Positions 1 through 31,357 of a stretch of 64,000 bases of DNA are shown here, piece after piece. Numbering within the stretch: position 1 is the stretch's first letter; the number at the start of each line of letters is the position of its first letter. The stretch spans positions 174,484 through 238,483 of the forward strand of contig CAYGFH010000002.1 of the NCBI GenBank assembly GCA_964349125.1. The letters run 5' to 3'. The translations under genes were made by a program, and so were the position numbers. This DNA comes from an uncultured Gammaproteobacteria bacterium. GTDB taxonomy: Bacteria > Patescibacteriota > Microgenomatia > UBA10105 > UBA927. Under the pieces are notes generated by a model, which saw only the letters and a program-made list of their open reading frames with translations, had not been told where the DNA came from and searched no databases.

Positions 1-3000
1 TTCTTGTGACCGACGATACATTTCCTTTTACAAATGCTGAAACCAAATTTCTACTGTTATTATCAATCACAGAGGCAGAAAGTGGAGTGTTCAGACTAGT
101 TGATTTCGCTATGTATGCGCCGTCCTCTGTGCTAAACCAAAGACGATCCAACTGCTCTTTCGGAAGATCAGAGAATGCACTGAGAATGACATCGATTTTG
201 CCGCTATTTGCTGTACGAGTTGCGCTTGAACGCGCAGTATTAAATACTACAATTACTCCTTGTGCAAGCAAATCACGCAACTGTTGTATAACTCTGCGAT
301 CAGTAGTACCGTCATAGTCAATACTTATAGCCTTGTATGGTCTGGCAAAAGCATTCTCTCTAAGAGTTTTTTCACTTGATATTGTTTGTGCAACTGATAG
401 TTTTTCCCAACCTAATCGACCAGCAACCTGGCTAGCTATCATTTGTTTCCAGACATCCTGCATAGTTTTTCCTACCTGACTTGTAATGCTCAGCCTGGAA
501 GGTTTTTCTATTTGCAGATATCCTTCTCCTTTCATATCCGGCGTTATATAAGAACTATCATCCGGGATTGATTTTTCTTCAGACAGCCATGGGTCCAAGA
601 CGGTTACATCCATATGGTGGGATCCGGGAATTACATCAACGAGTTTGGTACGTGCATCCCATTTGATATTTTTCATTTTTCCTTCAACACGGATTTTCAC
701 ATTTCCCAATGCTTTCTGCCTCCTCTGCAGGGAACCATACAGGGAAACAATTGAGCGTGGAGCGACTCTTGTCGATTCATCGACAAACAATATTTTCCCC
801 TGAAACATAGAGGCTAATTTCATGAACGATAGCACTACATTAAACCCTGCTGCATCCATTTCGGAGCTGGCATTGGTGGATGGGATTTTTAGACGATATA
901 TAGGAACTATTTCACCTTCTGATTGCAGATGTAATTTATCTATTATGTCCTTTGGAATCTGGTGTTGAACCGTTTCTCCGTTTATGAATTTACTATAAAG
1001 TCTATCGATATCAGCAGAATGTTCAATAATCCATGGGAATACGTCATCATAGGGCACTTGTTGTACAATCCCATTTCTCTGGGCGACTTCAGGCGAAAAA
1101 GCTTCCGCTGCCACATCTGCAGGAGCGGTTCGTTCGTTGGCAATAATAAATACCGGACTTTTTTTATCTTCATCTCGCAGAGCCAGTGCCAGCTTCCAAA
1201 TTGATAGTGACGCTTCCACATTATGAAACATTGACGCATTTGTCTGTTGTAAATCCAATTTACCCCGCCTCCCGCCAACCAAATCCACCGTCTGTCCCAT
1301 TTGAAGAATAGATATATCAGTCAGCGCATATGGATCATTTTTTTCAGCCGCATCAACGATGATATAACTGAATAAATACACAGCGAGCTCACGGTACGAT
1401 GTGACAGATTCTGAAAACCCTGCAACCAATTGAGCAGGTAATTCTACGTCTTTATTCTGTATGGTATAGCGTATATTTTTTTTGCTCCCGCAAACCAGCC
1501 GGCAAATATCTGTCAGAATATCTACTAATTCCGCTGATTGATATTCCGAATAGTCTTGCGTCACAACTCCCACTGAATTACGTAGCTCTTCGATTCTGGA
1601 ATTATATCGTTCAAGCAACAGTTCGGCTGAATCCAACTGAAGCATATCCTCATCCTTAAGGATGCGAATTTTTTGATACACAGCCATATAGTCGGTTATT
1701 GATTCGTTTTCAATTAATGATCTCAGGAATACTTCCTTTAATTTTTCACCGGATACTGAGTATGCAGATAATTCAAGCCGCAGCTGAATCGCATTATCAG
1801 GAGATATATTTTTATTTGCAGAGAGAGCGGAAATGAGTGTTGGATCCACACTCAGAAATGCTCTAACTCTTTCATTTGCTACGCTTACACCGTGATGTAC
1901 CAATATATGCAGCGCGTTTAATCCATCTGCAGCCTCTTCCGGGAATTTATCGATCCACAGCACGTAGCCGTCGTACACATCCTTAAAGTCCATTTCTAAA
2001 GCATCAAACGCGTCATGTAAAAACTTTTGACCATATATGTGTGTAAACTCATCAATTTGCGAAGGAGAAAGCTGTGCAGTGTTACTGTTTTGCAGTTTCT
2101 GTAACGTGGAAATAGTTGAAAATAGAGCGACTTCGCCTGGAAGAATTTCTCCCTGAACTCCCATAATTTCGGCAAGAGTATTTTGTATAATTCTAAATTT
2201 AAGATCATCCGGGAATGCAGCCACGGAGAGCTCTCTCACCAATGACTCATACCGGCTGTCTTTGGTTGCGGCTTCTATGCGCTCAAGCCTGTGAAAATTC
2301 AATCGCAAGAGCTCCTGCGCGTTTGATTCAGACACGTTATTCCGTTGGATCGATTGGGACAAAAGCCGTAAGTACTGATTATGTTTGAAAATATATTCCA
2401 TGTTCGTCTTATCATCCGAAGAGTCAGATAAAATGGTGGCTTCTGCAAATGCTTTCTTTGACATCTCCTGTGAAAGCACACGTTGTGATTCCCTATCCAG
2501 GAATAATCGCTTAACTGAATTAATTGCTTCAATCGGATCTTGTTGATCAAATACAAAATTAATAATTGCCAATTCAACATATAAGTCACTATCATCTGCG
2601 GCGGCGTTAATTTTGAATATCTCGTCAAAACCCAGTAGAATTTTTTGAACATTTTCTGGACTCAAATGCTGTGGGTTTGGCGTTCGTATCATGCTTTCCA
2701 GAATTGGCGCCCGATTTATATCCCTAACAGTTGCATCGTTTGTCAACTGGTCTACCCACTGTTGGATAAATGGTACGGCTAGCTCCGGTTTTGGTGCGCG
2801 CAGCATGCTAATGAATAAACCACTGCCTGATTGCGGGGAACCAAGCATATCTCTGGAGTCCATGCCGAATGTTCGCTGCAGCTCCGGAATAAGGCGTACG
2901 ATTTCCCGATTAACCACAAGCGGGAGTTGGGTAAAAATTTCAGATAAATAGTCGGATTGATCGTCGGTAAAGCCGTTATTTTTTGCATAAGCCACCAGCG

Positions 3001-6000
3001 TATTTAATTCGCGAAGCAGCTGGATTCTGTCCGGATTTTTCAGCAGTTTCTCAAATGCAGTAACCTGATTGTGATAATTCCTGACGGACTTTACAATGAC
3101 CGGAATCCCCTCAATAAGTTGCCATACTTCCCTCCCCTTTGCATACTTGGGAATAAGTTTAATCATTTCTAAAACATGCACATGTCGCCAATCTACCAAA
3201 AGAATCCGTAGAGGCCTGATAACAAAAAGCGCTGCATTGGTCAATGAATTTCCGCTTTGATTTAGTCTCTTTTCAGAGTCATCTGTAATTTCAATAGGAG
3301 AAACGTTCTCGATCGTCTGTTTTTGTGTATCTTCCTTTGTATTATTCTCTGATTTTTCAATAAAATCCCTATCAAAGGAAAGTGCCTTCTCCTGTTCAAA
3401 AAACTTCAATGTATCTACTTCGCTAGCGGGTTGAATTCTACCGGTTAAAAATACGTTGTACAAAATGGGACTGGGCAACTTCCCTTCTTTTTCATAAATC
3501 ATCTCCAGCATCTTCTGCTGGTATTGGTATAGAAACTGTCCGGCAAATATCCGTGCGAATTTTGGATCATTCCGTAGCGCCAGTAATTCTTCATAATATC
3601 CCTTCACTTCTTTTTGCCACTGGATTGATTCATCCAGAGCGTTAGTGCTCACGTACTGCTGTCTGAAAGGCAAATTCAGCATGTATGAAATGATAGATTC
3701 TGACGAGCCATTATGAGTCACGGGGCGCACCATTGGCTCAGATCGCTGATAAAACAACCTGCTAAGCTCCTTGAAATTCGGTATCAACTGCTCCATTTCC
3801 CCTATAAATTCGCTATCAGTAAGATCCAGCCTGTTCCAATACGGAAACAGTCTGTTGCGTAAATACTCTTCGGGATATGCATGAGTAATGAGGCCGCCAA
3901 GGGTAATAAAGTCTCGAATTTGAAACATCCCTTCATACAACAGCCTTATCTGCCATTTGTACCAACCTACAGTTTCAGGAATAGAATTTTCTCCCGCGGT
4001 TGCTTTGGGCTGTTGCCACTTGCGCCACTCGTTTATAATCTTCTTTTCTTCAGGAGTTTCAGGCTCTTTTATATACCCTGGCGGTAAAGCAGTCGAATTG
4101 TCGTACGGATCTTGAGGCAAAGATTCTACTTTTAGGACTGTAATTTGAAAATCAGGATCAGCCGTTTGAGTGGGATTCTGTTTCACAGATAGAGTCGATG
4201 CTGATCTGACCTGAGGATACTCTATAGGAGTAGGTTTCTCAGTACCCCGAGAATAAGCCAAAATATACTCAGTTCCTGCATACATTTGCTTATGTTCGAA
4301 TACGTAGTTGTCCTTATATGCTGGTGTGTATAACTCGAACAGATCTATATTGTCAGGTAGAATCTCATTTTTTGTACGATCATGTAGTGCAGCTGCGTGT
4401 GGCGGTAGTGATGGGGCTGCAACGGAAATAGTATTTGTTTGATCATCCCGAATTTTCACCGTGAAGTTGTAGGCAAATGCAGATTCCGTACGAGTGAAAT
4501 TAAAATTTAGGGCCGCGTTATTCAACTCAATTACAGGATAGGTACCATCGGGATACGTAACTCCTTCTAAACTCTTATAACTTATCCAAGTACCAGTTTT
4601 TGACGGATTTATATTCTCACTCACCGTGCCATCTTTCTTCAGCGTTAGTACATCCTCTATCCCTAGAGAAACCGTTTTTATATCCGATTGTGATCGCGCG
4701 TAAAGGAGAGCAGATCTATAGAGTAGCCTGCCGAGACCTCCGCCTCTGGTAGTAGGAGACACGTATACAAGACCGATATGCAGATCATCGGGTGATTTCC
4801 CTGGATTTAACCCAACAAACCCAAGCGGCACACCTTTTGCATCCGTAAGTTCCAGTACGACGGATCCAGGAATAGTGTCATCAAACGCCTCACCCGTAGA
4901 ACCAGGTGAAAATGCCTCCGGAACTTTTTTCACTACCGACACTTTCATACCATCTGGAGCATCTACTGCAAGTTCAGAAACGAGACTATCTGTGGGTTCG
5001 GACACTGCTTTTGATTGTTGCAGAAAATATTCTCTGAGTATCGCTATTTCGTTTTTATTCTCTGGATATACTTGTGAATACAATTCGAGAATGAAGTTTT
5101 TTCCGGTTGCTTCGTAGTACATCTTCAATAGTCCTTCATAATCAGCTCCAAACATCGCGATGGCCACTGCTTTATCTATCTCCGCTATCGTAAAGCGCTG
5201 AGTATTTTTTAATTCGTCAACTAACGCCATCGCTACACTGACTTCTTTACTATACGGAGTCCAAGAGCCAAATAATGAGAATATTTTGTTTGGTTTTTCT
5301 TTGCCAAATACTTCAAGTTTTCTTCTGGCGACCTCCGTTAACCCTTCATGTAACAGAGAATATGCCCCATTTATGACCTGCCTGGTTTCCTTGGTGCCTT
5401 CAGTAATCCCATCAATTCCAGCGACCTCAATTCTAGAAAGATTTTCTTCTATAACCCCTCGCTGGAGCGATGATTCGGATAAGGTAATATGCGACCTATT
5501 TGGATTATTTTGAGCCTGTATTCTGTGGATATCTTCATGCCGTTGTATTACCTTGTTTGTTATCAGCGTATATATATATGTTTTATCAATTAAAGGACTA
5601 TATGATGATGATCCCTTTGCGAGAAACAGTTGCCGTAAAAACCCTTGAAACCCACCTACGTGGATATACTGATCGGCTGAGGATCGTTCAACATTGATTT
5701 TCTCTTCAAGTCCGAGTGATGTTAAATATGCGCGTATATATTCAATTTGCTTATCTTGGATAACAAATTTTGCATACTGATGCGCTGTAATCCATTGCAG
5801 TATTCTGTTATGGATAGGATTTGCTACGGCTCCGATGAATGATCCTACTGGTCCAAAAGCACTCCCAATAACGGCTCCTATGACTACACTCGACACAGGA
5901 ACTGGTGACATTTTCTGAAGTATCTTCTCTCTAACATCTGAGACTGAAGGAGACACGTCAGATTGTTCATATGAATTCTTATCAGCAGGTTTTGTAGATA

Positions 6001-9000
6001 AATTTATCTTTATTGGGTGTAAATAGGATTCTCCATTTGTTTTTGCCGAGCGGAGGGTTGGATCAAAGACGACTGGCTCAAGGAATCTGTGTTTCTCTGC
6101 CACGTTTGCCGAAAAGAAATTGACCATATTCCCTAGAAGCTTTACGGATTGATTTTGGGTAATTATGCCAACAGCATTCGCTGATTGCATTGCGCTTTCT
6201 GCCAATAATTGAACACCATCTGCATACGATAATCCGTTCGGAATTTTATCCCGCTTCGGCAGTTGTTTATAAAATTCCAAGAAGGCATCTGCAGGAGAAA
6301 CACCCTTAGCAAGCGCACGAGTGATCAGTAATTCCCCAAACTGGCTTTGCTCCACCAGCTCAAAGTGTGCTGCATACTCTTTGGATACCATTGCAAGCAC
6401 TTCTTCCTTTGCCTGAGCGTATGACAATTCCGGATACTGCTTCATGAGAAGCGAAATCATAAATCCGGTCGCCATGCCTTCGTTCCATGCCTCGTTCATT
6501 ATCGGCCCCAGAAACCTCACCATGTCATGCCCTGCTTCATGTGCAGCCAACAGAAATTGTATGCGCTCAATATCTTTTAGATTTGCGCTCGCGCGAATGA
6601 CGTAGAGTCCCAGCCGCTCATCATAAAATGCCATCACGTTCTTTTGCTTCGGATAAAACAGTTCAAATTGTGCATCAGAATACACGACTGTGTTGTAGTG
6701 AATAGGATCTTTCTCTGCGAGTGGAAGCGGTAATTTGAGGTTGTTTAGAAGTGTTCGTATAGTTTCTACAATGCCAAGCACACGTGCACGGTTGAGTCTG
6801 TCCGGGTGAGCGTCATCAGGAGTCTGCTGCGATTCATACCATGCTTCTATCGCCTCTTTGCTTACGTCTGATAACTCTACTCCAGAGTCCTTGAGTGAGA
6901 GCGGATATCCCGCTGGATCTTTGATGTGTAAGGCTACATACCCTTTTGCCAGGCCGTTGTTTTGCCAAAACGGCTTTGTATAAAACTGTTTTAGTACTGC
7001 ATCCTGCCCGTCTTTTTGCTCCAATTGTGCTACCTTGAGCAGTGACCGTGTTACTGATTTTTTTGCTGCTGGCGTAATTGTCATGCGCATATCTGCAACA
7101 ACATCAGATGCTACTGCCGCCGGTGCTCTCATAATTTGCTTTGTGGCACGTGATGACAATAGCGCGGGCTCATCATGAATTCCCATGGATGCGAGGATCG
7201 CTTTACTCACTAAATGCGCAGGATCTATCGGGGGATTTACTTCATCCTTCAGGTATTCTGCAACTTCGTCAAATTCAGTTGCGGCTGACTTAAACGCTTC
7301 GGGTAATTCCGTACACCCAAGCACCACCTGTACATCCATTTCCTTCAATTCCTTCACCAGTGCCAACACTTCTTTATGCATTTCGTGCTTGCTGTTTATC
7401 GTATAGCCTATCTGATCGCGAATCTCATTTGGGACAAATGCATTGCCGACAGACACTTTATCCATCCATATGATTTTTTGCACACGGCTCATGACATTCT
7501 GCGGCAATGTATCTTTCTTTTTTTGCCTGTATGTCGTAAGGCCGTGTTTCTGTGACATGGTATTCATAAATACATCGGTTCCCAATATAATCACATCACT
7601 ATTATGTTTTGCGAAATTCACAATCTGATTGATGGTTAGGTAAAAGAGTGAATCACCTTCCCCCCACCGAATAGCCTTAAGTGCCACATCATGAAGCAAG
7701 CTGATAGTGTTACACGCGACAGAGAATTGACACCCGTACTGCTTGGCAAACAGGCGTAATTTTCCGTACAGTTGTGAGAGCCCGAGCCGAGCGTTAGTGT
7801 TGAGCATATCTGCTATCACAGTAGGCTTCATGCCTACCGCCGTCATAAGTTTTGCGACCCAATTTGGGATAATGCGCTGTGCTGCCCCAAAGTAAATGAG
7901 CGTCGCATTAATCCTCGGATCCAGCTCATCGGTAAAGGCAAATCCTGATCCGATATCTGGCGCCGCAATCCATGTCCGACCCGCAAGATTCGGGAACGGG
8001 AACGTTTCAATATCATTCACCAACTGCCAACTGCCATCTGCTTTTTTTGTATATACTGTGTCTCTATCCGCATTATTGTCTACTCTGATCCTGATGCGTG
8101 CACCCGGCTGTATGTGATGAAGCGGTAGCGCCTGATCCTCCAGAGGATACCGGATCCCTTTTTTCGGGAAAAAGAGAGCAAATTCTCTCGTAGTTGTTTC
8201 ATTTGGCAATACACCCTCCAACCACATAAACGCATCATGTTTCGCTCGCATCAAGCTGTCGGCAACCAAAGGCAACACTTGCATGCCAGGTCTGTAGGCT
8301 GTGAGTTTGGTGCGAACTTTAGAGAGGAACGCAGATGTATCCGCAGTACGAAGATCATATGTTGCGCCGACTGCATCCGCACCATCTCCATACAGCCTTG
8401 CCAACCGATTATATCCGCGTTTTTCGTCACCAAAATATTTCAACAGATACACATCCAAATCAGGCACGTTATTGTTGAGTTCTTTTTGCAATCCGGCGAG
8501 GTGGGCATCCGCACTGTTACTGCGTATCCTGTCCTGACTGGTGTACACCCATTTGGAGACAGTCGGAGCAAAATCATAGGCAACGCCGGGATGGAGGCGG
8601 AATGAATGCTTCTGATTATCCAATTTACTGGTATAGGTGTATGTATACGAAGAAAGGGCATCGGTAAATTTGCCTGCGAGGGCAAAGAATCCTTCCTGAG
8701 TAGTAGGTATTCTGGAGTTTTTTATCTGCGACAAGGTGACACCTATCGCTTCAGTTATGAGCTGATCCCCCAGTTCATGCCCTTCAGCATCCTGCAGAGC
8801 CTTGAGCTCTCCGGGAGAATCTATGGCTATCACATGAGCAGAGCCAGCCCTGCCGGGATAGGCAACATAGAGCTCTATCCCCCGTCTGAACGTAAGAATT
8901 TGTCCTGGTTGTATAGTGGCGAGCATCTGTTGGAATACCTCCATAGACCGGGTGGATATAATCGTCGGATCATTAGGACCATATCCAAGCTTCTTGACCT

Positions 9001-12000
9001 GTGCATCCACTACTGGATCGGTAAACGCAGCTACCATAATCCGTTTTGAAACCTGCTGATTATCCTGATTCGGATCCTTTGAAATTCTATCTGTGACAAA
9101 TTCACTGAGCATTTGTGCTATTCCCGGATATCCTTTTTTCAAAAGATCCTGAATTTGTAGGTCGGTAACCTTTGGCAACAAGTCACCGTTTGCATCGCGA
9201 ATTTCCGCATAAAATTTGGATGTAGACCAGGCAATTTTGATAGGCAATTTGGCAAGGCCTCCGGTTTTTGTGGCATACACCCACTCAAGTCCGTCCTGCA
9301 TGAATACATCTTTACCCGAAGCGGGATCAGTAGAATTAAATAGAGCCGTATGAATGCGTTTTTCCATTTCGACGCGTCTATCATCTGAGTGTTCTATCGC
9401 ATTGTTTAATTTTGTTATCTCAGATTGCAGCGTTCTGATCCGGATTTCCAATTCCAAAATTCTTTTGGTAGCTTCATTACTGTCTCCAGACGGTTGATCA
9501 GAAAGCTGTGATACTAACTCCCTCATTTGAGCTATGGTTTTTTCCAATATATCCTTCGATTGTTCACGCTGCATAACCATATCCATATCCTCAGAAAGCT
9601 CGATAATCAGATATTCATCTCCGCTTATTCCGGCGCGGACAATCACACACCGACCACAAATACCCTCTAACCGCTTCGATAACGCACCGATACCCACTCG
9701 AAGCAACATATCTCCCCCAACCATACCCAGAGGTGTTTCATTTGATTCACGAAGACTGGCAAAATCTACACGCCCAACCACTTTTCCTTTGAGTAAATCA
9801 AGAAAAATCTGTTGAGTAAAACTTGTGTACACAGATTGAGAATCTGCATATTCAGATGCTATTTTTTTAACATCCTGTAGAATAGGAATTCCGTTTGCAT
9901 ACTTTTCCCATATTGGCTCAACATCAATAAACTGTGCATGCATCGGATCGGTAATCAACTGCTTGCGCAGCATTTTCTCCTGCGTCGTCGGCAATATAAT
10001 ACCCCGTGATCTCAGTGTGCTTATAAACATGTCCGCTAGTCGCAAAGCTCCTTCTGTATTTTTTGTCTGTTCGTATGCGTTGGGTAGCTCAAAAAGCGCC
10101 GTATCCAGCTGAGAGAGCTCTGAAATCTGTTCCTCATTCACAAAAAGGGAGACCAATTTGTCCGATACCGTGTGATTTTTTGCCATGGCCCGCTTCATAG
10201 CGGTCAAAAATCCCTTCGGATACGATGTTCGCAACTTTTCATCATCTAATGCTCCCAAAAACATTTCACCGTTTTTGTAATCAAAAAAGTCATCTAAAGT
10301 ATCAAATTCGTCTATGAAATTATTTATGACAAACGGCTGATCAAGCTTTGTTTTTCTGTCTTCAAGTGAGTGGAATTTCTCGTAAAGATACGCAAGAACC
10401 GGATTGCGTTTAGGATTCGGTGAGTCCTCGGTATAGTGCGGATATGTGCCAATAACCGCGGCATTGATAGCAGCAGCAAGGCTGGTAATCGCCGTATTTC
10501 TTCCGGTAATATTTGCGGAAAACAACTCCTGTGATGAAGTGGATGCCTGATCACTGTTGAGTGTAGCTGAAAGCTCCTCCTGTGTCAGCTCTACTATAAG
10601 TTTCCACAGCGTGTCTGATATCTGAACTCCTGGAAACAGGTGCTCGCGCAGGTAGGGAGCATTATGAAGAACAGCCAGATTAAAAAGCTCAAGGGATCGA
10701 GCGGCCGCATGTTCGTATCGGGGAGTAGCAAATCTTCTCACTCCTCCATTAATGGATTCTGCATAGATACCGGTATCCCTATACAGAATTGTAAGCTTTG
10801 TGGATGCATATACGGCCTTTTTCAGATCTTCTTTTGGTAGTGTGTTACTGGCCGCATCACTGGTCAAAAACGAAACCTGCGAATAGACATCCGGATTATT
10901 CACCTGTTCAAGCAGTTCAAGCATTTTTTGTGTGCGGGTCACTATTTTCCCTTTTTGTGCAGCTATAACACCATGGAATCCCCCGCGCAGTGACTGAAAC
11001 ACATTTTGCAGTAGCTTCCCACGCTGGGATGTATCGTGCAGTAGTTGTTTAATAGTGTAGAAGTATGATCGCGTAATAAATGTTTCCGGATCTAATAACT
11101 CATCGTTATGTACAGATTCTGTAAGTGTTCCATCCTGTTCAAGAATGGGTTTGAGCGATGCAACCTTAGCTGTTTTGTTTGCATAAAACTTTGCATATCC
11201 GCTTTCCAATGCCTTTGATATCGGGTGTTCTGTCACATCCTGTGAAGTGGGTGCTTTCAATTGTCCTGATACAACCAAATCCGTCCCCTTTATCATCATA
11301 GTCGGTGTGATGTCTATATTTATCAGTGTTTTTGCGGATAACACCGGAGCAATCAGAATTGTATCTTCGGGTTTTCTGATAGTTGGCATGGTACCCCATG
11401 CATTCGGAACCAGTGGGCCCGATACATATGAGTATTTCTGATCCGGAGTATCTGCATGCCACCAGGTACCTGTGTCGGGTATATCGGCTGAGACAACCTG
11501 TTCATTCACTGTTCCGTCAGAATCTATTGTATGAATCGGATACTTGGATTTGTAGTTAATCACGCAGGTCTCCCCTGCCTCGCCCTGGGCAAAGACGGAG
11601 GGGAGGAATAGGGATGATAGTTTGCCACAATTATCTGTCAAGGCAATATCCTTCTGTACTTGTGGTTTTGGTCGAATTACCACACCCGAAATCTCCCTAA
11701 CTCCAGGCTTTCTAACACCCCCACCTATTTCCACATACGGATCTCCGAATACGGATTCCGGTATATCTACAGAGATATCTTGTTCTCGTATGTCAAACTG
11801 GTCAGAAATGCCTATATCCTCACTTTGCAGTAGTTTCATGAAATTATCTTTGCTCGTATTCGCGCTTAATAGGGCGGCATTACTGACGGACATATTCATA
11901 GGGATAGTTGGGAATTCTTTCTGTAAAGCCTGAAGCTTTTTAATAACCACTAATGTGTTCGCTGCCAAAACATCCGGTGTTTTCGTTTCGTATAACGTAT

Positions 12001-15000
12001 CAAGGACAAAAGATAATCCTCGCTTTCCTGACGCATCGGTGGTAGGAATCATCCATACGACTTGATCGGCCAAACTCCCAATATTCTGGTGACTCCCTTT
12101 TGTGTATATATACATTCGGAACGGCTCTGCAAACGTCAGATTCGTATCGTTATTTGCTCCGGGCTGTAATACAGCGAGACAGGCACGAATATTCTCTATG
12201 ATGCTGTCCATATCGTGTGTCATGACACTTGTGAGCAACTGTTTTCCGGTTTTTGCGTTTGTTAGTGCACGTATTTGATCAAGTTGTACTTGCAAATTTG
12301 GATTATCAGTTTTGATGTCACGCATTTTCTGAGCTACTGCGTATAATTGTTGTAAGATATTCTCTATCTTTACCACTTGTTTTTGGATGTTTATCAGATA
12401 CTCCGAGACAATACGTCGTTCTTCATCTGTCAAACTCGCACCTTGCTTGACCAATAATTGTTGCAGGTCGGCAATATCTTCTGAGAGAGCAAGTGCACCT
12501 GAACCGGTATGAAACTCCTGACCGATCTTTGAAAAAATTAACGAAACCCTGTCAGATGGAGCCAGTAAGTCTCTCAGAACTGTAAGTTCGTTTGAAGCCT
12601 GAAGAGCATCTGCCTGGCGGATCACAGTAACAGCTGTGGAGATTGTTTTCGCTGCTTTTTGCAATTGTAAAATTGTGGCCGGATCATCGAGCGCTTCTGG
12701 AGTATCAAGCACTCCTTCTAATGCACTACGCACGGCACGTTCACTCTCTGAGAATTCTACGTTTCTATTATTTGCGGTCTGATACATTTTCGAAAGCGTT
12801 GCGTTAAGCGGTATTCCCGGATCTTTTCGTAGAAGCGCAAATAGTTGCGATATGAGAACTGGAATGTGGGATGGTATCTTTTCATTCTTGTCTGGGATCG
12901 GGACATACAGATCAGGGTCGGCCAGTTTTTCAAAGTTCGATAAGAAATTTGCTAGCTCCTGATCCTTGGTTAATGTCGATCCTAACATAGTTGATTGCTC
13001 ATCCCGAGTTAGCATATCCATAAAATGATTTTTATCGTCGAGACTTAGCTCATATTCTTCAACTATAGACTGAAATATATCTTTTCGATTTTTTAGCAAT
13101 GAGGAAACGATTTGAGCTTTTTCTTCGGTCAAATACTCTGTGGGGTCTATAGAATCGCCATTGATAAGGCTATTCCACTTACCGTGCAATTGAACTGCAA
13201 GAAAATACCCGAGAAGAGCCTCTTTATCAGCATCACGGGCAGCAATATTTGAATAAAATATTGAAGTATTTATGATACTTTTTACCATCGCTTCTGATAA
13301 TTGGTTTGGAAGTGTTTTTATCCCAAATGTACTGCGGAAAAGCGCGGTCAAATCACGACGGTTTTTTTCGTTAAAGGCCGATATGACAGTTTCACTCTTA
13401 TCATTTTGCAGTGATCCTTTGAAAGCGGTAAGGTCCGCCAACAGCGTATCAGTTGATTCGTTTGCAGCTACCACTATTCCGAGCTCACGTTTTGTCGACA
13501 GCACAACTTTTGCTTTATACAAAGTATAGCCGCTTCGGATAAATTCCTTCACCTGGCTTTCAGTGGCACTTTCTAATGATTCTACAAGACGTATAAAAAT
13601 GCGTACATCCGTATTTATAATATCTATAGATGTCTCATAGAACAACGCGATTTCATCATCGCTCCAGTTTTCGGCTCGAAAACGGTTTTCCAATGCTTTT
13701 AATCGATTCATAAACACTTCTTTATCCGCCTTTTGCAGAGATGATGTATACAGTTGCATTATGAGCGATCTGGAAAAGCTCAGAAGTGAATTTGCTTTCG
13801 TCAGATACCCTGCTCCTCCGTACAACTTGCTCATGTACATACTTTGCACAAGCTGTTTCGGTACTATGTCAGATTTTCCGGAATTTATATATGACATCCA
13901 GTCGTTTCGCAGCTGTGTCCATATGAGATCCTTTGCTTCCCTTCCGGAGAAAATATCGTCAAGTTTTTGCTTATCTGCTTCACTAAAGCCAATTATATTC
14001 AGAGCATTTGCCCCATGTGTTTGCACAAATGCATAAAAAAGCTGCAGTACATTGTTCGTATCAATTTGTACTTCCCGATCCGACATCAATTGTGACTTTA
14101 CCGTCTGAAGCTGAGGAAGCACAGTGTCTATGGCATATGCGTTGAGCACATCCGTAAACATCGCAGTATCCTCTATATGGCCTAATCGTATACTCTCAGC
14201 TGTAATTTCTTCACTAAATCTCCGCATCTTCTCAACAACTCCGGAATTGCCATATTCAAGTTCTCTGGCGATTATCTTAAGAAGCTCAGGAGTGGCAGTT
14301 AAAATAGGTACTCTCTCGGTCTCTTCGGACGGAAATAGGAGGTTTAATTCAGCATTTGATAATCGTTGCAGGGCATTAAACACATCGCCCACTCTGTTTC
14401 CGATTGCAAACCATTGTTTCATATATCTGGCTAACAGCTTTTCTAATACCGGGTGTCTTTCCAAAAGGGACATATACGATTTCGCAATTTTTTCTGTGGT
14501 CGCACCCGATCGTCGCCATTCGGAAACGTGTTTCAGGCTTTCAAGATATATTTGGGCATGTGTGGTCGTGTTGCTTAGATAAAAAATATCTGAAATTGAC
14601 ACCCCTTCACGACTCCACTGGGGTATCCAACGCGTAAGCAGAGCTTCACGCAGGAACCGCTCCGGAATATTCGCAATAAGCTTTGCAAGGCTACCAATTT
14701 TGTAAGAGTCTTCCGCATCTGCTATACGTAAACTTGCCCGGATTATTGCAGCAAATTCATGCGGTGTATTATTGAACTTCATGTATGCGTCGGTTGGCTT
14801 TAGCTTATGATTTATATATGCTTTTGACCGCATATACGCCATAAAAATTTCCAGATCTTCATCGCTTATATTTGCCCATATTTCTGGTGTAGTTTTACTG
14901 TTTATTAGCGCTGCAACACCAAATTCTGCTCCCAAAATATTCAACTCACTCCTTCGTTTTTCAACCCGACTTGCTCGAGCAGCTTGAATCTGTTTTTGTA

Positions 15001-21000: not shown

Positions 21001-24000
21001 CTGAAGTTATAAACGATACTGACGGTGGTGTTATCGTTTCCGTTACAATTGCCTGACTCGCAGTAACAGCAGGAAGCTGGGTGATTCGCTGTACCTGTTT
21101 TTCATAAATAGTTGGAACATCTACAATAAATGGTTGAATTTGACGTCCCTTTGCGTCTTTCGCTCCTTTTGGAGGAAACACTTTGACGTATTGCGTGGAC
21201 GGAATATTCTTGATTTGTTTCCCTACAGAACGGGTTCCTTCTTTGACACTTTTGAGTGATTCGAATGTCCCTATCATAAATGTGGATCCAGGCATTATTT
21301 GTGATGGCGTCGACGGAACTGGCTTTCCCTCAGGACCAGCCTTAACCGTCTCCACAGGATCCGCACCAACGTTCAGTACTATACATGGCGCTCCCGCCGC
21401 AAACACCTGAGGTAGGAAACGGAATGAGTCTTGTGGACCACAGTCTGTTTCTACAGCTGTTTTTCCATCATTGGCCTGTACGGATTCCTCGCGCGCAAGC
21501 AAGGCTTTTTGTGCCTGCACGTGTGCCACATCGTAGGACAAATCCTTCAGAATATCTGCTTGCCCAGATGCGCGGATGGCATCAATCGCAGCTGTGTTCA
21601 ATTTTGCAATACTGTAGGGAAACGCCCGATCATCTGTTCGACGTCCGCGACGCACTTTCGCTCCATCAGCTCGTTGCTTCATTTCACCACTCGCAAATAG
21701 TTTTTGCTGGTAATAACGATCCCCTGCTGTGATAAATGGATCTGCAAGAACTATATTTTCGACGACCAATACCTTTTTACCATCCACCGTCACGTTTGGA
21801 ATAGGATCACCTTCCAAAATGATATTGGGTTTATAGATATCATTGTGCGGAAGTCCACGCTTTTGCAGTGCTAAGACCCTCTTATATGCCTGTTCTTCAA
21901 CATCAGGAGGGATGAGGTAGTAGTAATCGCTGTCAGCAAAATATTCACCTAACGCTCCACCAACTATTGCTTTTTGCAGTATTCCTACCGGCTTCCCTTT
22001 CCAGTAGACGTATCCAACCACTTCGTAATAGAGCAATTTCCCATCAAGTGTTTCTCTGGCTTTTGATATAAACGCGGCTGTATCCTGCGGCAGATTTGGG
22101 TTCTTGCTGAGTATATCCGGATCGAAAAACTTTACTGCCAATGCAGTTGGTGATGGCCCATTCTCCCAAGCAAAGACGGCACCCGTTGCTCCCGAACCGA
22201 ATACTCGTAAACTGGATAGCGGCGGCACCGTGAAATTCGCAACTCCCATGCCACCTGTTTGAAATGCTTGTTCTTTCTCCATTTCTTGCAACCGTGATAT
22301 GACTTTTGTTTTTTTCGCATCTGAAAACGCTTTCCCAAGAGGCTCTTCTGTCTCCGGTTCATCCGGGTACTCAGTTATTGGATCTTCGGTCGGCGCGTTT
22401 TCTGTTGAAACAGCTTGTGGTGTCGGAGCGAGAGATTGCGGGTTTAGTTTCTTGTCAGTTTTTTTCAGATACTGTTCTATCACAGTAAGCATTTTTTCGT
22501 AGCCTTTGCCGGTGAGTAGCGTAACGTAATTGTCAAACCCTTTGGTTCTAAAATTTACTCCCGGATCATACAGTGGATACTTCTTTTTAAATTCATTAAG
22601 GGAAATGAGCTTTCCATTTCGTCCCGAGTGGGCTATGTCATAAAAAGTCTGGAATGCCTCACGAATATTTCCGTGGTTATGTAGTATCCAATTCTCTACT
22701 CCAATCCCTCCAAGCCCTCCATCTCCAAAATCATCAAATTTCTTATATGCATGACCCTCTTTTAGCAGTTTCTTCGCAAGCAATATATTTGCAATCACCT
22801 CTGCACGTTTAGATTCCTCAAGTGAATCTAACCTGCTTATCACAGCGTTATTGGACGCGAACAAGGCCTGATCTTCACGTGTTGTTATACCAATATCCAG
22901 ATCTATCGTGCGATCTCCAACTTTAACACTCTTCAGGCGTACTTGGAGCTGTTCGTCTCCCCCACCGGCTGCCACTTCCGATTCATGAGGAAACGCAGCT
23001 TTGAGGGCGGTGGCTATCTGACTTGCACGTTCAAAATCTTTTGCATTTACGCTTAGAGAGAAGTCAAAATCATAATCACCTATGACATTGGTATGCCGTC
23101 CTGAAGAGCCTATATTTGCAAGCTGTGCGAGGTGCACTTGTGTATCTTTTTGCTCTACCGCCATACCAATGCCCATGTCATTCAATGTCTTTTGGATAAC
23201 AGTTCGCACATCGGCATCAAGCTTCGACACAATGTCACTATCCGCATTTATGTTTGGGATGATTTCCTGGATATCCGCTGCGATAGGGTCAGACGGGGGT
23301 ATGAGCATTGCCTGAAACTTCCCGCCTGCAAATTCCTGAACACCTTCAAATGCTTCGCGTCGTACATCATACATCTCGGGTGTATATAATACGGTTCCAT
23401 CTTCATCTACAACCGGCACGTAATACCCATTTTTTGCGATAGACATGTAGAGGGTTTCCATAAATGGCTCATTTGCTCGTATAGTTTTTTTCGCTATGAT
23501 GGCATCAACTTCGCTCATCGGAAGCGCTGACCGTACACCCACATGATGCTCATTTATAGGCCCATTTATCAGGCCGTATTTTCGTATACTCTCAGTTTCA
23601 TTTGCTGCTCCATTCTCAAGATAAAACTGATCTCTATTTCTGACTAGCAGAATAAGTTCTCCATACTCGTTTGCTATTGAATTTTTCAGTTTGCCTCTGA
23701 ATGATTTTGATGATTCCGATGGTAAAATCTGGGAAAAGTCTGTATCCAGAGGGGTTGAATCAGTACCACTATCCCCCCCCATGAGCTCTCGAGCCCTAAG
23801 ACCACCCTGCAGAAGGTTTTCTATTGAAAATATAGTAATGGCGTTTTCTTTACTAATCGGGAACACTCCTTTGAGCAAATCTCCCGCAGACATAGAGATT
23901 TTTCCGAACCCGGCGCGTACTGCAATTCTATTTCGCTCATCTGCTGTTTTTCGAACCGATGACAGCTCGGTTTGCAACTCGTCCAGAGAACCATACCCAG

Positions 24001-27000
24001 TTTGCAGTAAAAACATCTGTGAAATTCTTCCGACTAATGTCTGGCCCTCGGATACCCGATAATCTGCGTAGAGACGGCGTATCTGTTCACGGACATACGA
24101 GTCCTCGGAGAGTCTTTTTACTTCCATCTGCTTCTTGGTACCTCTTCCAAGCAGAGAGGTACGATAGAGTACATCACCGCGTACTAAAAATAATTCCAGA
24201 TTTGACCGCTGCTGGGGGTTTAGTATTTCACCCTTCATAAACCTATCCGCCAAATCTGAGCCAGTACGCAAATGAGTAATATATTGATCCAATTCAAAGT
24301 TTCCGGAACGTACGGTAGACCGAAGTAAATCACGATAGATTATCTGTCGTTTGGCCAGTGGCGAGTTTGCGTTCTTTAACACTGGACTTATATTCTCGGA
24401 CTCTTTGAACATTTTCGAGAGGACGTCATCGGTATACAATATTTCAAAAACTCGGAATAATTTTGCAAAATACGGGATATTATTTTCTTCAAATATACTT
24501 CGAATCTTCTCAAAATCCGCTCTCGGGTCTTTCGCGTCTTTAAGGAGGTCCAATATCTGCAGCTGAAGCCTACGGAGCTCTTTGGAAGGACTATTCCCGA
24601 TTTGATCAAACAGATCCATATATACCCTATACTCACCTATCAGGGTTTTTGAAATCTTTTCTCCTTTGGCAATCCGGTCAAAGAAAATGCGTTGAATCTT
24701 TGCGGATTTGACTTTGGTTTGGTTAAACAGTTCCCAAAATTCCCGTTCATCAGCGCTCAGCTGTATTGACGTATCACTCGCAAGCAGTTTGCCATATGTA
24801 GCGATTATATTTCGATCCTCACGGAACATATTTTCGCGCTCATCGAAATTCATATCAGCCGCTTTTTTTCGCAGATATTTATGCACATAGCCAATCGTGT
24901 CAGGATTAGCGTGTCTGAATGTCATCATATACTGGTTAAATTCAATGCCTTTTAAAAGATCTCCAAATGATTGAGTCATCGCAGCAATCGCCTCTATTGT
25001 AGGAATGTCATACAGATCTACTGGCAGCGTTACTAGTTCCAAACTAGATTTATCTATCTTCCCTTTATATGTCTGAATAACCTTATAGAGGGACTGGAGA
25101 GCCGCTGGATCCCATCTGGCCAACTTGTTCAGAAGATCTAATGCCCACGTACCATTACTTCTAAGGAGTTTTAAAAGAAATGAACTTCGAATTGGGGAAT
25201 TAACTACAAACCTATCGATAAGGCTTGCTGAGATTTTCGTCCTTACGTTTGATTCACTCAGCAAGAGAACAGCGTTTGGACTGTACGTTATACTGCCACC
25301 GATTAGATTTAGTATGCGCAGTAAATTTCCAACCTCAGTAAATGTTGGATTAAGTATATTTTCTATAGCAGAAATTCGGGAAATTTTGTTACCGTCGCCT
25401 GCCTTATACATAAAATTAACGGCTTGAATTTTTTGAGGTGAAGCTGTTTCCAGCTGTGTAAGTATTCCCGATACGTCGACACTTTGGTAATCTTTTGTTA
25501 TTTGATCCTTAAGCTTTATACGGAGCGACTCGATTCGCAGTTTTTCTTTTTCCGGGGCAGGCAGAGACAGCTGACGCACCCATGATTGAAGTTTCCCGAC
25601 TACGGTTTTATTTGGCATTTCACCCGTCATACCTGTTTTTTGCAGCATCCACCCAATTACGCTACACACTTTTCCTTGTTTGTCTGCCGCGTAGACGGTT
25701 ACCAATGGTATTCTTGCCTGTTCTTCACAGCCTTCTGTCTGCCCATCTATCCATTCCTGCGCAGACTCTTCTATAGGTGTGCCCAGTAGAGATCCGGTAT
25801 GAGCAACCACTACGCCATTAAACTGAAATTCTCCCTTAATCCTGCCATAATTTCCGGGAACAAATTCGATATAGTGGTCACCTAAAGCCGAATCTCGAAT
25901 CGTGACGCTAATCTCAGACATATCAGAGACCGTAACATCATTATCGTTGGCAGCTTTCAATGAAGTCTCTAGAGATTCTTTGCTCGTTTTTGCCGTTGTC
26001 AGCGTAGACTCAGGAACAATGATCGATAATTTTATTCCTGGAATGCTTTTTTTTATCTCCGTGACTTTTTTGATCAGTACCTGAACATGGTTTTCCAATA
26101 CATCACTTGTTACTGAACCATACGGCCTATCCAATATAAATGCGATACCTTTTGTGCCATCCGGATATGTGACCGGCTCGAGATACACCAATTGGTCTGT
26201 GATGCTTCCACGGAGCTGTTTCCTCACCTTGCTGTATATAAAGAACATATTCCCGTCCCCCATCGTCAGATCCGTATCATTGTTGATACCCGATCCGCAG
26301 GAACTGTTCATAGCGAGACACTCTCGCATGTTTTCGGCAATATCATTTATATTGTTGGTAAATGTGCTCGTAAAAATTCTGGATGTAGATCCGCTCTCAA
26401 ATATATCGTCCATATAGGAAAGTATGCGAATGATATTTCCAAAACGTGCTTGTATTGCCTGTTGCTCGTCTTCTTTTTCTGATGGTTTTAATATGGATAG
26501 CGAGAGATATTTATCGTGAAGCTTGTTGTAAATATCCAAAAGTTTGACCGTCTGGGCTCTGGCCTCAGAGAGGTATGCATTTGCTGCGGCAAGATCATCT
26601 TCACCAATCTTACCCGAATTTTTGTCCAATATATCTTGCAGGCGCTCCAGATCTTCTGTGAGTGCATATGCTCCTGAGTCACTCTTAAATTCTTCCCCCA
26701 ATTTCGAAAAGATGCTGACCACCTGCTGAGAGGGTATAAGCAATCCCCGAAGCCGCCCTATTTCATCCGAAACATTGAGCTCATCCACATACTGGCTCAT
26801 GCTTGCGATAGTAATGAGTGGCTTCATATTTACCTGGAATACTTTGGTAAGATTCTGGACTGTATTCTCCAAACCCGATTCCTGCAAAATCCGCTCAATC
26901 TCCCTCAGAATTGCTTCACGCTGCTGTAGTTCGCCATCTGCAAACACCATTGCTGATGTTCCCTTAAGCTTCATTTGGATTGCGTGGGTAATCACCTTTG

Positions 27001-30000
27001 TCACTAGAGCGGTGGGATATCGATTTAACAGGCTTATAAGCAACTTATCCTGCTTACTTGCATAGGCCTCAGGATCCTGCAAATTCACAAGGGATCCGAT
27101 GATGTCTGTGAGCTTATAATCCACTGTCAGAACATTCCCTAACCGTTGTTCTGAAGCATCTTGTTGAAGAATTTCCATTACAGTTGCAAATTCTTTCGCA
27201 GACAATCCCGCATCTTCAGGAGTCACTGCAGGCATTTTTTGCCTGTTTTGCAGCGCTTCATCAACGTTCTTTGCCTTTTCTGCCACTAAATACTCTTTGG
27301 GATCGATATATTGCCCTTTACGAAACTCTAGCCATTTCCCGTTAATCATGAGGGCGAGATAATATCCTATGAGCTCCTGGTTCTGATCCTCCGACAACAC
27401 TGTCTTTGACTCTGAGTGTAGAAATGCCAAATACAATGACATATTCACGATTGACCGTGTCTGCTCCTCATTAAATACTTCGGGAGCCTTGATAATACCG
27501 AACTTATCTTTAAACAATGATTGAATGTCCGATAATATCTTCTTCCTATGAGTTGAGAACAAATCAGGTGTTGATTTATAGTTTGATTGAAACTCGCGTA
27601 TATCTTTTCTTATATTTAACAGTGCCGTCGTATTTGGAGTTTGTTCACCGGATCTGTTATATGTTTCGCTCAGCGCCAATTTTGCTTTATATAATGGGTA
27701 AATTTCTTTTGCAAAACGTTTAAAATCCTTTGGTGACATCGTCTGAATGAGAGAGAGAAAATCTCCAAATAGACTCGGTGCCGCCCGTAACACATCCTTA
27801 GAAATCGTATAAAATTCTGCCCGTTCATCTCCGCTCCATTTTTCCTTGGTCATTCTCTCTTCCACTGAGGCCACCCCCTGAAACAGCGCATTTATAGTGA
27901 CAGGAAGCGTTGTGGGAGAATGAACGGCATCATTAAATGCTCCTATAAACTGGCTTAGCGCCTCTATTTGACTAAAAAATGCTACGCCACCGGCCGCATC
28001 TATGAGATGAGGCAAAAATACCAGCTCAAATGGTGTTCCTGAGGTTTCGATTCCAGCGTGAAGATACTCGCTCCACGTTGTCAGTAATTTCTCAATAACA
28101 AAATCACGAAGGTCTTTTTGATTAGACAGGGCATCAACGAACTTAAAATCTTCTTCAGTGAACTCATACCCCTCTGCTTCTTCCACATCGTGCATTGCAG
28201 CCACAGCGGTAAAGAGTGCCAACCAGTTGTCATCTGTTACGGTTTGAAATTGTGGTTTCGCGAGCTGCTCTTTCAGATGCAGCAATTGCATTTTTGCTAT
28301 CATATCTACCTTATTCTGAAATGCTATTTCATCATTTGAGAAATTTTCGTTTAAGTATGTGGCTAATCGCTCACCCATCACCCTACTCGTCACTGGATCG
28401 GGCGATTGAAAATTAAACAAATAAGATCGCCAAAATTGAAAGTCGTCATCTGCCTGAAACAGCTTTGTTCCCATCAACTGCACGAACTCCCGAAGGTCAG
28501 GATTATTCCGATAACTCTTCCACAAAAACTGCATACGGGGAGTTGCATCTGCAAGCATTTCATCGGTAAAGTTAAATGTTTCAAGGATAGAGGGAGCAAG
28601 CTTAATAAATTCTGATTCTTTACTCTCTATAACAATTGTGGCGAAAATCGCATGATCGATATTCTCCGTTTTTTTGAGCTGTTCAGTGGCCGTAGTGATA
28701 TGAGTATAAATAAATTCTTGAATCCATGACCCTCTAAAAGACTCTGCTTGCAGCGCTGCTTTCATGGTCTCTTTATCGTCTTGTGTCATCTGTGGAAAAA
28801 CTCCCAAATAATTCGAGAGCATTTTCCATGTATCCGGAGGAATTGGCGGATAATTCCCTTGATCATCAGTCATGTCCAAGATAAAAAACTTGACCCTCTC
28901 AGATGCGCCTACTATATCAAAACGATCATTAAGCGCGCGCATGATGTTAGTAAGATCTCCGTCATGAAATTTAATCCCACTGTTCAGAAGTGATTTTTCG
29001 AGTGCTACAAGGGGAATAAGCTTTGCGATGTTCTCGTTTAATAACGTATCGTCTTTTATAACAGCGATGATTTTCGCCAAAGCGCTCATGGCACCTTTTC
29101 GCTGTAAAAGCCTAAGGGTATTTTCTTCTCCCAATGATCTGAATAATCCGCCGTAATATACTTTTGCCCCTACAATAGATCTGACAAATTCAGGAAATTC
29201 TTCAAGTATTGCATTGGAAAGTAATGCTGTATTGGGGCCGATAGTAGTTTTATCAAATCCCGCTTCTTTCACGAAGGCGAGCATCTGTTGCAGCTCATAT
29301 ATTTCTTTCCCGCCACTTTGGACAAAGGCCTCAACAATGTTCAGTATTTTGTCCGAATTCGGGATGACAAAAATTTCTTTCCAGTGTATAGGGTTATCAT
29401 TAATCTGATTCAACAACGCGACGGTTTTTTTTGTATCTCCCTCATCCCATACAAACGGCATATATCCATATTCAAATCCCACTCGGTATGAGATGAGTAA
29501 GTCAGCTATTTTTTTGTTTGTCATACCAGGGATGCTCTGAAGGATTCGGATAGCATCTTTCAAATTTTTGATAGCATTGGGTTTTTCTGATAGATCAGCT
29601 ATATATTTCCGAAATAAGCTCGAACCCACTATAAAGTTCAAATTATCCATACTTTTTGTCGCATCTATAAATCCAATGACGGTTTGGATAACTTTTGCAT
29701 CCGTTTCGTCTGATCCGAACGACATGATCATATGCTCCAAAGTACTCACATCAACAGTGTCATATGCGGCATATGCTGTAAGAATTTTTTCCAGATTAGA
29801 TTGACCCTGGCTGGATTTGCTGTAAATAAAGAGTAGATTTTGGATATATGATGTGTCTGTTTTCCCATTGAGTGATTCACCAGACAATTGAAGCGTATTC
29901 ATGAGCCCAAGTAATGTTGACATTCTGGTAAATGATTCTCTTACTGAAGTGGTATCCAACGGTACGCTATTTGATAATTTACTGATAATAATTTGAATGA

Positions 30001-31357: not shown

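Follow-up and report, generated by a model that had tools for sequence, protein, structure and literature searches.

A non-repetitive giant bacterial protein with nucleotidyltransferase and acetyltransferase domains as a possible exported carrier of unrelated enzymes

The giant proteins of bacteria are usually either assembly lines of the non-ribosomal peptide synthetase (NRPS) and polyketide synthase (PKS) type or repetitive surface proteins (PMC11573180), and the locus described here raises the question of what purpose a giant of neither kind might serve. The stretch of DNA under study, hereafter termed the window, comprises 64,000 nucleotides of contig CAYGFH010000002.1 (assembly GCA_964349125.1, positions 174,484 to 238,483) and contains two tandem giant open reading frames (ORFs), genes A and B, both located on the minus strand, and nothing else. 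In gene B, an initial annotation made from the sequence alone had recognized a string of unrelated catalytic signatures, including a nucleotidyltransferase (NTase), a kinase-like block, a GGDEF-like palm, a gluzincin and a GNAT acetyltransferase, which follow a signal-anchor and were compared to the payload of MARTX-type or polymorphic toxins. All motif strings quoted in this annotation were found in the translation of gene B at the implied places. Our analysis confirms the description in part, with two of the five signatures being verified, two present as motifs only but non-random, and one, the GGDEF-like palm, remaining without support. Of the enzymatic domains of gene B, at least the NTase and the GNAT acetyltransferase are thus real, with a kinase-like core, an HExxH module and two further HExxH sites as candidates.

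Positions 2 to 31357, minus strand: gene B, starting with an ATG at 31357 and encoding at least 10,452 amino acids (aa), with its C-terminus located past the left edge of the window.

The coordinates that had been assigned to gene B (1-31357) proved to be correct, with an ATG at position 31357 and a frame that is open to base 2. On the minus strand, this frame is uninterrupted from position 31552 to base 2 and thus extends over 10,517 codons without a stop. For an open frame of this length at a GC content of 42%, an origin by chance is ruled out and gene B is a genuine protein. The start of the gene is backed by homology, with aa 6-98 of B matching the N-terminus of a giant ORF found at a different locus, which we refer to as L028. 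Upstream of the ATG (cacagacgtactatcATG), there is no Shine-Dalgarno-like sequence. Two technical explanations for the giant ORFs were dropped: an alternative genetic code, as translation table 11 already leaves the frames of genes A and B open and their roughly 21,000 codons do not include a single in-frame TGA, and an assembly or repeat artefact, as no repeats are present.

Self-BLAST did not reveal any internal repeats in gene B, and neither NRPS, PKS nor adhesin domains were found in it in Pfam scans, which places the protein outside the two classes that encompass the usual bacterial giants. About 88% of its sequence is without a detectable homologue, and about 12% can be aligned to anything. 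A word-indexed homologue search with aa 5453-10452 did not return any matches, and sequence searches of the PDB, carried out with single segments of B and with the profiles A2, A4 and A5, gave nothing significant. With Pfam, NCBIfam and PADLOC models applied to the whole of B and Pfam models to its excised segments (E ≤ 10), the GNAT domain was the sole match. A sub-threshold resemblance of aa ~6319-6364 (window 12300-12440, minus strand) to PF18363, the insertion domain of a phosphoinositide phosphatase (E 0.015, 15.9 bits compared to a cut-off of 28.5), is probably noise.

Positions 22463 to 24661, minus strand: conserved module of about 730 aa (B aa 2233-2965) with homology to the stand-alone proteins P0002-P0006.
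Positions 22463 to 23164, minus strand: Pol-beta-type NTase within this module (B aa ~2732-2965), consisting of a palm and a helical second lobe.

The first verified domain is the NTase, whose characteristic strings are GSSGRHTNVIGDYDFDF at aa 2750 (window position 23110) and IDLDIG at aa 2818. The signature hG[GS]-x9-13-Dh[DE]h followed by a third carboxylate is present, with G2750-S2751, D2763-x-D2765 and D2821 as its constituents, all of which are invariant in 58 homologues. Together with R2754, K2862 and Y2871, these residues define the presumed active site, and the corresponding positions of the module (G518, S519, R522, D531, D533, D589, K630 and Y639) as well as a GxGxENWI motif are invariant in the 58-sequence alignment. 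The K-x8-Y pair formed by K2862 and Y2871 is presumably equivalent to the triphosphate-binding residues Lys152 and Tyr161 of the CCA-adding enzyme from A. fulgidus. At the level of sequence, NTase models from Pfam (PF01909, PF18144 and similar) did not match aa 2700-2960 at E ≤ 10, nor did they in a scan of the whole protein, and PADLOC models including those for CD-NTases did not match B. A profile of the NTase module detected OAS3 alone in the PDB (E 2.3), aligned on the G-S...D-x-D motif. The relationship is more apparent in the predicted structure. An AlphaFold model of B 2233-3330, generated from an alignment of seven sequences, shows predicted local distance difference test (pLDDT) values that are mostly between 70 and 90 over its residues 1-735. 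In a Foldseek comparison of this model to the PDB, a class I CCA-adding enzyme is matched (1r89, E 2.7e-5, probability 1.0), and further matches, all at a probability of 1.0, include CutA, Cid1, TUT4, poly(A) polymerase, GLD-2, NF90 and CdnD.

The fold matches from a confidently predicted model and the invariance of the catalytic residues bear out the initially proposed NTase, which the modelling confirms as a two-lobed Pol-beta enzyme of the class I CCA-adding, TUTase-PAP and cGAS-OAS-CD-NTase type with intact predicted metal- and triphosphate-binding residues. We have restricted this assignment to the level of the superfamily because the body and tail of CCA-adding enzymes are absent and no CBASS model matches. 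The domain differs from class I CCA-adding enzymes, Cid1, TUT4/7, GLD-2 and CutA by the lack of a match at the sequence level and, unlike in class I CCA-adding enzymes, the palm is not succeeded by the body and tail domains that hold the tRNA. Instead, the module finishes about 150 aa past the palm, and 221 of the 436 residues of the structure 4x4n align. In further contrast to CCA-adding enzymes and poly(A) polymerases, the NTase comes after some 500 aa of helical and alpha/beta domains that are specific to its family, and it lies inside a protein whose length exceeds 10,000 aa. Compared to cGAS, OAS and the CD-NTases of CBASS, it resides within a giant ORF that lacks an adjacent Cap effector or an operon partner.

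The NTase is the last part of a larger conserved unit, in which a helical region is followed by an alpha/beta domain with invariant acidic residues, a long helix and the NTase itself. A word-indexed search with B 2650-3300 identified six proteins, one of them from Candidatus Collierbacteria, which match in the NTase module only and align end to end with B 2233-2965, demonstrating that the module also exists as a stand-alone protein. A scan covering one genome per species detected at least 286 relatives, the best identity among those listed being about 37-38%. The relatives listed are, by the titles of their records, mostly from Patescibacteria and uncultured gut Bacilli, with a few from Micavibrio, Pseudobdellovibrionaceae and metagenome-assembled genomes labelled as Gammaproteobacteria. 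In most cases, the module forms the C-terminal end of a protein of 1300-1700 aa, and in six long carriers of the module (L003, L045, L035, L018, L065 and L074) Pfam did not detect anything. Judged from these comparisons, the module of about 730 aa looks like a large undescribed family that is absent from Pfam.

Positions 4658 to 4870, minus strand: core of a GNAT acetyltransferase, PF00583 (B aa 8830-8900, with the whole domain encompassing aa ~8790-8960).

The second verified domain is located towards the C-terminal end of the known sequence. For B 8830-8900, PF00583 scores 34.1 bits (E 3.6e-8), which is above the curated cut-off of 20.7, and the domain is retained at E 5e-7 if searched within a chunk of 5000 aa. 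The sequence RGGGLG at aa 8871 conforms to the R/Q-x-x-G-x-G/A pattern of GNAT motif A, and the best matches of the segment among PDB sequences are weak but all GNATs. By its profile match, the proposed GNAT acetyltransferase domain of B is thus confirmed.

The module embedded in gene B is found within a very long ORF at a few other loci, including L028 and a second one termed L035. L028 (CAYHHA010000003.1, locus 284-22213), whose record carries the label uncultured Gammaproteobacteria, exceeds 7,404 aa, has a GC content of 41% and is cut at both ends of the locus. The giant ORF of L035, whose N-terminus is not covered, extends over at least 4,486 aa. In a neighbour-joining tree of 58 copies of the module, the copy of B groups with exactly these two. 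The part common to all three giants is confined to the NTase module, with B and L028 additionally sharing a hydrophobic leader, which precedes the module in the same order, whereas the payload domains of the family members are not homologous to each other. In L028, Pfam assigns a Peptidase_M48 domain (4.3e-9), an ABC1 atypical kinase (3.3e-10) and a Methyltransf_25 domain (2e-7). By these assignments, at least one member of the giant family demonstrably strings unrelated enzymes together and members therefore appear to carry differing sets of enzymes, which lends independent support to the general idea of a multi-enzyme protein. Directly 3' of the giant gene of L035 (L035 13641-15007), we found a small ORF of 196 aa and another of 259 aa, the latter of which has, by eye, the look of an AbiEii-type nucleotidyltransferase toxin (KGGTAIRLL...FSEDLDF). 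If this reading holds, the pair would be a toxin-antitoxin system.

Positions 31064 to 31357, minus strand: conserved N-terminal region (B aa 1-98), 34% identical to the N-terminus of L028 (E 4e-9).

The N-terminus of B (MGSAGGIVSGFLISFAIATRL) is hydrophobic, with Kyte-Doolittle values of about 1.8-2.0 over 15 residues. Its first 21 residues form a hydrophobic segment (MGSAGGIVSGFLISFAIA) followed by TRL, whose counterpart in L028 (MVPGSLGLLAGFLFSFAFA) is followed by LQQ. The leader is retained in L028 as MVPGSLGLLAGFLFSFAFALQQ, inside the 98-aa stretch of 34% identity, and both leaders finish in an A-x-A motif. It is plausible that aa 1-21 of B constitute a putative export signal or a signal-anchor with an A-x-A site.

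Positions 21638 to 22240, minus strand: candidate kinase-like motif block (B aa ~3040-3240) containing GSGATG, ALAVK(3077)F, LPHND(3173)IYKPN(3178)IIL and VLAD(3206)PF.

The kinase-like block follows closely behind the NTase. Its defining strings are GSGATG at aa 3054, ALAVKF with K3077, HNDIYKPN at aa 3171 and ADPF at aa 3205. Their spacing is canonical with respect to the 23 aa between the Gly-loop and the lysine and the 96 aa between the lysine and the catalytic aspartate, with the 28 aa between the asparagine and the aspartate of VLADPF being above the usual distance. By reading, the sequence LQKRGLPHNDIYKPNIIL resembles helix alphaE followed by the catalytic loop. A composite regular expression of the Hanks type matched B once and none of 3000 composition-preserving shuffles (0.2% without the DFG term), a result that overstates the significance since the pattern was composed after the site was known. 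The block did not match any Pfam or NCBIfam model or PDB entry, and an exhaustive HMMER search of its segment against 1.84 billion cluster representatives found no homologue at E ≤ 1e-3. When predicted together with the NTase module by AlphaFold, the region displays a pLDDT below 50 and is unusable. A BLAST alignment of the block to the ABC1 kinase domain that Pfam detects in L028 is out of register, and a kinase-looking stretch of L035 did not match B. Of the proposed kinase, the motifs, their canonical spacing and their absence in 3000 shuffles have thus endured, whereas hidden Markov model (HMM) matches, homologues and structures were not found, which is the outcome that the initial annotation had itself named as evidence against such a domain. 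Although we cannot tell whether the block is a kinase, its constellation of motifs appears non-random and we lean towards considering it a real candidate for a minimal kinase-like core.

Positions 6326 to 6946, minus strand: HExxH module common to genes A and B, a candidate zincin (B aa 8138-8344, ..FYD..V.RASA..AHEAGHDM..NEAWNEG).
Positions 31947 to 63998, minus strand: gene A, the upstream tandem giant ORF, stop at position 31947, first ATG at position 63869, encoding at least 10,640 aa.
Positions 38562 to 39254, minus strand: paralogous HExxH module of gene A (A aa 8206-8436, AHEFGHSM...REANEAL).

The gluzincin had been proposed from the strings HEAGH (aa 8273) and NEAWNEG (aa 8288, with the downstream glutamate being E8293). 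These are part of the sole segment that is common to both giants of the window, with B 8138-8344 being 28% identical to A 8206-8436 (E 2e-12). In gene A, HEFGH...REAN-E is found at the columns aligned with the motifs of B and, in both proteins, these are preceded by an FYD...V.RASA strand. The pattern HE..H.{12,25}NE[GAS] occurs in 0.13% of shuffles. In contrast to this conservation, no peptidase family or fold was found: the segment of B did not match any peptidase family of Pfam at E ≤ 10, a profile of the A and B sequences did not detect a peptidase in the PDB, and neither a word-indexed search with their alignment nor a metagenome scan yielded homologues. In hhalign, the segment of B and the M48 region of L028 are aligned HExxH on HExxH (E 0.076, probability 0.7%), and a single-sequence AlphaFold model of B 7160-8359, with a mean pLDDT of 36, is unusable. 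The HExxH motif and the downstream N-E thus stand as features shared with gene A, and the HEAGH...NE module is a candidate zincin at the level of motifs.

In total, HExxH occurs three times in the 10,452 aa of B. The two further sites, HEQSH and HEDIH, are located at aa 3973 and 8607 (window 19441 and 5539, minus strand), and one HExxH site of B (HEDIHRIQAQNNP) resembles the sequence HETVHAIDYRNNP of the L035 giant in 7 of 13 positions, which is not significant. Between the HEAGH module and a second HExxH site, aa 8486-8515 (window 5813-5902, minus strand; VPVSSVVIGAVIGSAFGPVGSFIGAVANPI) stand out as the only internal part of B that is strongly hydrophobic. Its glycine-zipper pattern GxxxGxxxGxxGxxxG is that of a stretch which may act as membrane-inserting element.

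Positions 9578 to 9790, minus strand: probable location of the previously noted but unsupported GGDEF-like palm (B aa ~7190-7260, with a long coiled coil behind it).

The GGDEF-like palm did not withstand scrutiny. Neither GGDEF nor GGEEF is found anywhere in B, and the lone candidate between the kinase-like block and HEAGH is VDFASLRESNE..GMVGGDMLL..RAGISGDEYLII at aa 7197-7252, a stretch that reads VDFASLRESNETPLGMVGGDMLL...RAGISGDEYLIIEL and whose signature is SGDEY at aa 7244. The D..LR..NE..GM..GD..L sequence upstream of it resembles the GGDEF consensus by eye alone. The region did not match Pfam (PF00990) or the PDB at E ≤ 10, and the GGDEF domain of PleD, used as an approximate query, did not align with B 7120-7360. 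With SGDEY as the sole signature and a model with a mean pLDDT of 36, the assignment lacks statistical support. What AlphaFold predicts confidently is the long coiled coil at aa 7260-7325.

The frame of gene A remains open as far as the right edge of the window (positions 63870-63998), and its start may be located outside with a length exceeding 10,640 aa. Nearly all of its sequence is without a detectable relative in the databases. Its aa 6262-6328 (window 44886-45086, minus strand) encode an FHA domain (PF00498, E 1e-12), and a sub-threshold match to the model of the cytoplasmic domain of YscD from type III secretion systems was obtained as well. The presence of this phosphothreonine-binding domain is of note given the kinase-like block in the neighbouring gene. 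The two genes are separated by an AT-rich spacer of 589 nucleotides (31358-31946) without a terminator-like hairpin.

What, then, is gene B? The reading we favour, to which we would concede not quite an even chance, is that of a non-repetitive giant in a small, fast-diverging giant family that serves as an exported carrier of several unrelated enzymes. In this scenario, B would be exported via its N-terminal signal and either stay anchored or be released at the cell surface. As a 'polyvalent' carrier, it would deliver a number of mutually unrelated modifying activities to the cell of a host or prey, with nucleotidylation and acetylation, and possibly also phosphorylation and proteolysis, among them. 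The HExxH modules may cut B into pieces and its long helical stretches would be spacers or a scaffold. Delivery to a host or prey is suggested by the groups that mainly harbour the NTase module, namely Patescibacteria, uncultured gut Bacilli and predatory bacteria. Many bacteria of these groups, Micavibrio and Pseudobdellovibrionaceae included, lead a host- or prey-dependent life. It is also possible, although here our doubts clearly prevail, that B, L028 and L035 together represent an undescribed family of non-repetitive 'polyvalent' giants in uncultured bacteria, from L035 with at least about 4,500 aa to B with more than 10,000 aa, which group different sets of enzymes around the NTase module and act as delivery vehicles for host- or prey-modifying activities.

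Several observations weigh against an exported carrier. The module carriers of 1300-1700 aa start with a hydrophilic sequence and do not contain a signal peptide, because of which the NTase module may work inside the producing cell. In the window, which holds only the two giants, no genes for secretion systems, immunity or processing are seen. Three of the five claimed domains are without HMM, homologue or structural support, and a Pfam scan of the L035 giant did not find any domain. Finally, the signal-anchor holds with respect to a hydrophobic N-terminus that is conserved in L028, but a positively charged n-region is absent from both leaders, which are in this respect atypical. The initial idea of a multi-effector giant is sustained by the non-repetitive sequence, the verified NTase and GNAT domains and the multi-enzyme content of L028, whereas three signatures have remained at the level of motifs.

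Some of these observations are accommodated by the alternative that B is an intracellular giant scaffold or multi-enzyme protein, which would reside in or at the inner face of its producer and would not be a toxin. The NTase would then act as in the proteins of 1300-1700 aa, for example in the tailing of RNA 3' ends or in nucleotide signalling, and the GNAT and other domains would regulate components of the own cell. Such a role, which we consider unlikely yet deserving of serious attention, would be in line with module carriers elsewhere that contain no signal peptides and show no toxin-type context, with an FHA domain in gene A that is typical of intracellular signalling, and with a window in which neither secretion nor immunity genes are seen. 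It is at odds with the conserved hydrophobic leader common to B and L028 and with the extreme divergence that leaves about 12% of B alignable. Conflict and surface proteins more typically show divergence of this degree. The very low cysteine content of B (0.2%) also speaks against an intracellular location, although it is weakly informative.

A giant surface or structural protein, serving in attachment or as an envelope fibre with the enzymes as accessories and thus resembling the giants of Omnitrophota, appears improbable. The signal-like N-terminal segment, the mostly helical character of B with its long coiled coil at 7260-7325 and the GNAT domains reported in giant proteins of Omnitrophota (10.1101/2023.11.21.568195) would suit such a function, whereas repeats and Ig-like, cadherin, dockerin or beta-helix domains are missing from B and the requirement of the NTase for NTPs would argue against an extracellular action. 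Equally doubtful is an over-reading of motifs, by which the NTase and GNAT domains alone would be real and the kinase-like, GGDEF-like and HExxH signatures chance or non-catalytic: these three lack support from Pfam, NCBIfam, PADLOC and the PDB, have no homologues and AlphaFold predictions with pLDDT below 50, and short motifs such as HExxH recur in a protein of 10,452 aa, but the composite kinase pattern is not found in any of 3000 shuffles and HExxH..NE is located within the one segment that A and B have in common, where both motifs are kept at 28% identity.

The favoured reading of B as an exported carrier invites comparison with known systems. The likeness to MARTX toxins is confined to the concept of one large exported polypeptide with several effector domains. 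Their secretion relies on a C-terminal type I secretion signal and not on an N-terminal hydrophobic leader, and their A, B and C glycine-rich repeats, RTX nonapeptides and CPD (Peptidase_C80) are absent from B aa 1-10452, where Pfam and self-BLAST did not detect any autoprocessing domain. Within the same residues, Pfam did not find Rhs, filamentous-haemagglutinin, PAAR, LXG or TPS parts for trafficking or stalks. With every testable defining feature (repeats, RTX, CPD, Rhs) absent, the proposed analogy to MARTX or polymorphic toxins is not supported by the known part of B. A filing of B as polymorphic toxin was dropped, as trafficking and stalk domains are missing from aa 1-10452, with the C-terminus and any immunity gene that follows it located outside the window.

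Closer precedents are giant multi-toxin proteins such as SACTE_5178 of Streptomyces with 13,652 aa and the giants of Wolbachia and Rickettsiella (Zhang et al. 2012, PMC3482391). Like B, these proteins exceed 10,000 aa and unite several unrelated enzymatic domains in one chain. Theirs include ART, caspase, lethal-factor peptidase, deaminase and latrotoxin-CTD domains, none of which was detected in B. According to Iyer et al. 2017 (PMC5512222), the polyvalent proteins of phages and conjugative elements contain 2-15 domains per polypeptide and are used by viruses and plasmids in inter-genomic conflict. As in B, unrelated enzymatic domains, of which there are many, are combined in one polypeptide. 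In contrast to them, the NTase module of B did not match viral contigs, and a 6-kb piece of B did not match plasmids. The giants of Omnitrophota are very long and largely unannotated ORFs of uncultured bacteria, some with GNAT domains, for which an action on prey was proposed (West-Roberts et al. 2023, 10.1101/2023.11.21.568195). These contain dockerin or beta-helix architectures, whereas B has neither and no homology to them was detected.

While giant multi-enzyme proteins are of a known kind, the family of NTase modules, which has at least 286 copies and was not matched by any Pfam model, appears to be undescribed. A giant without repeats in which different enzymes are joined would constitute a third type of bacterial giant, for which few precedents are recorded. 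Since gene A is almost entirely, and B to about 88%, without detectable relatives in databases that hold billions of proteins, both are good test cases for structure-based annotation. If the NTase module were an effector, it could provide a handle on the manipulation of hosts by ultra-small episymbionts.

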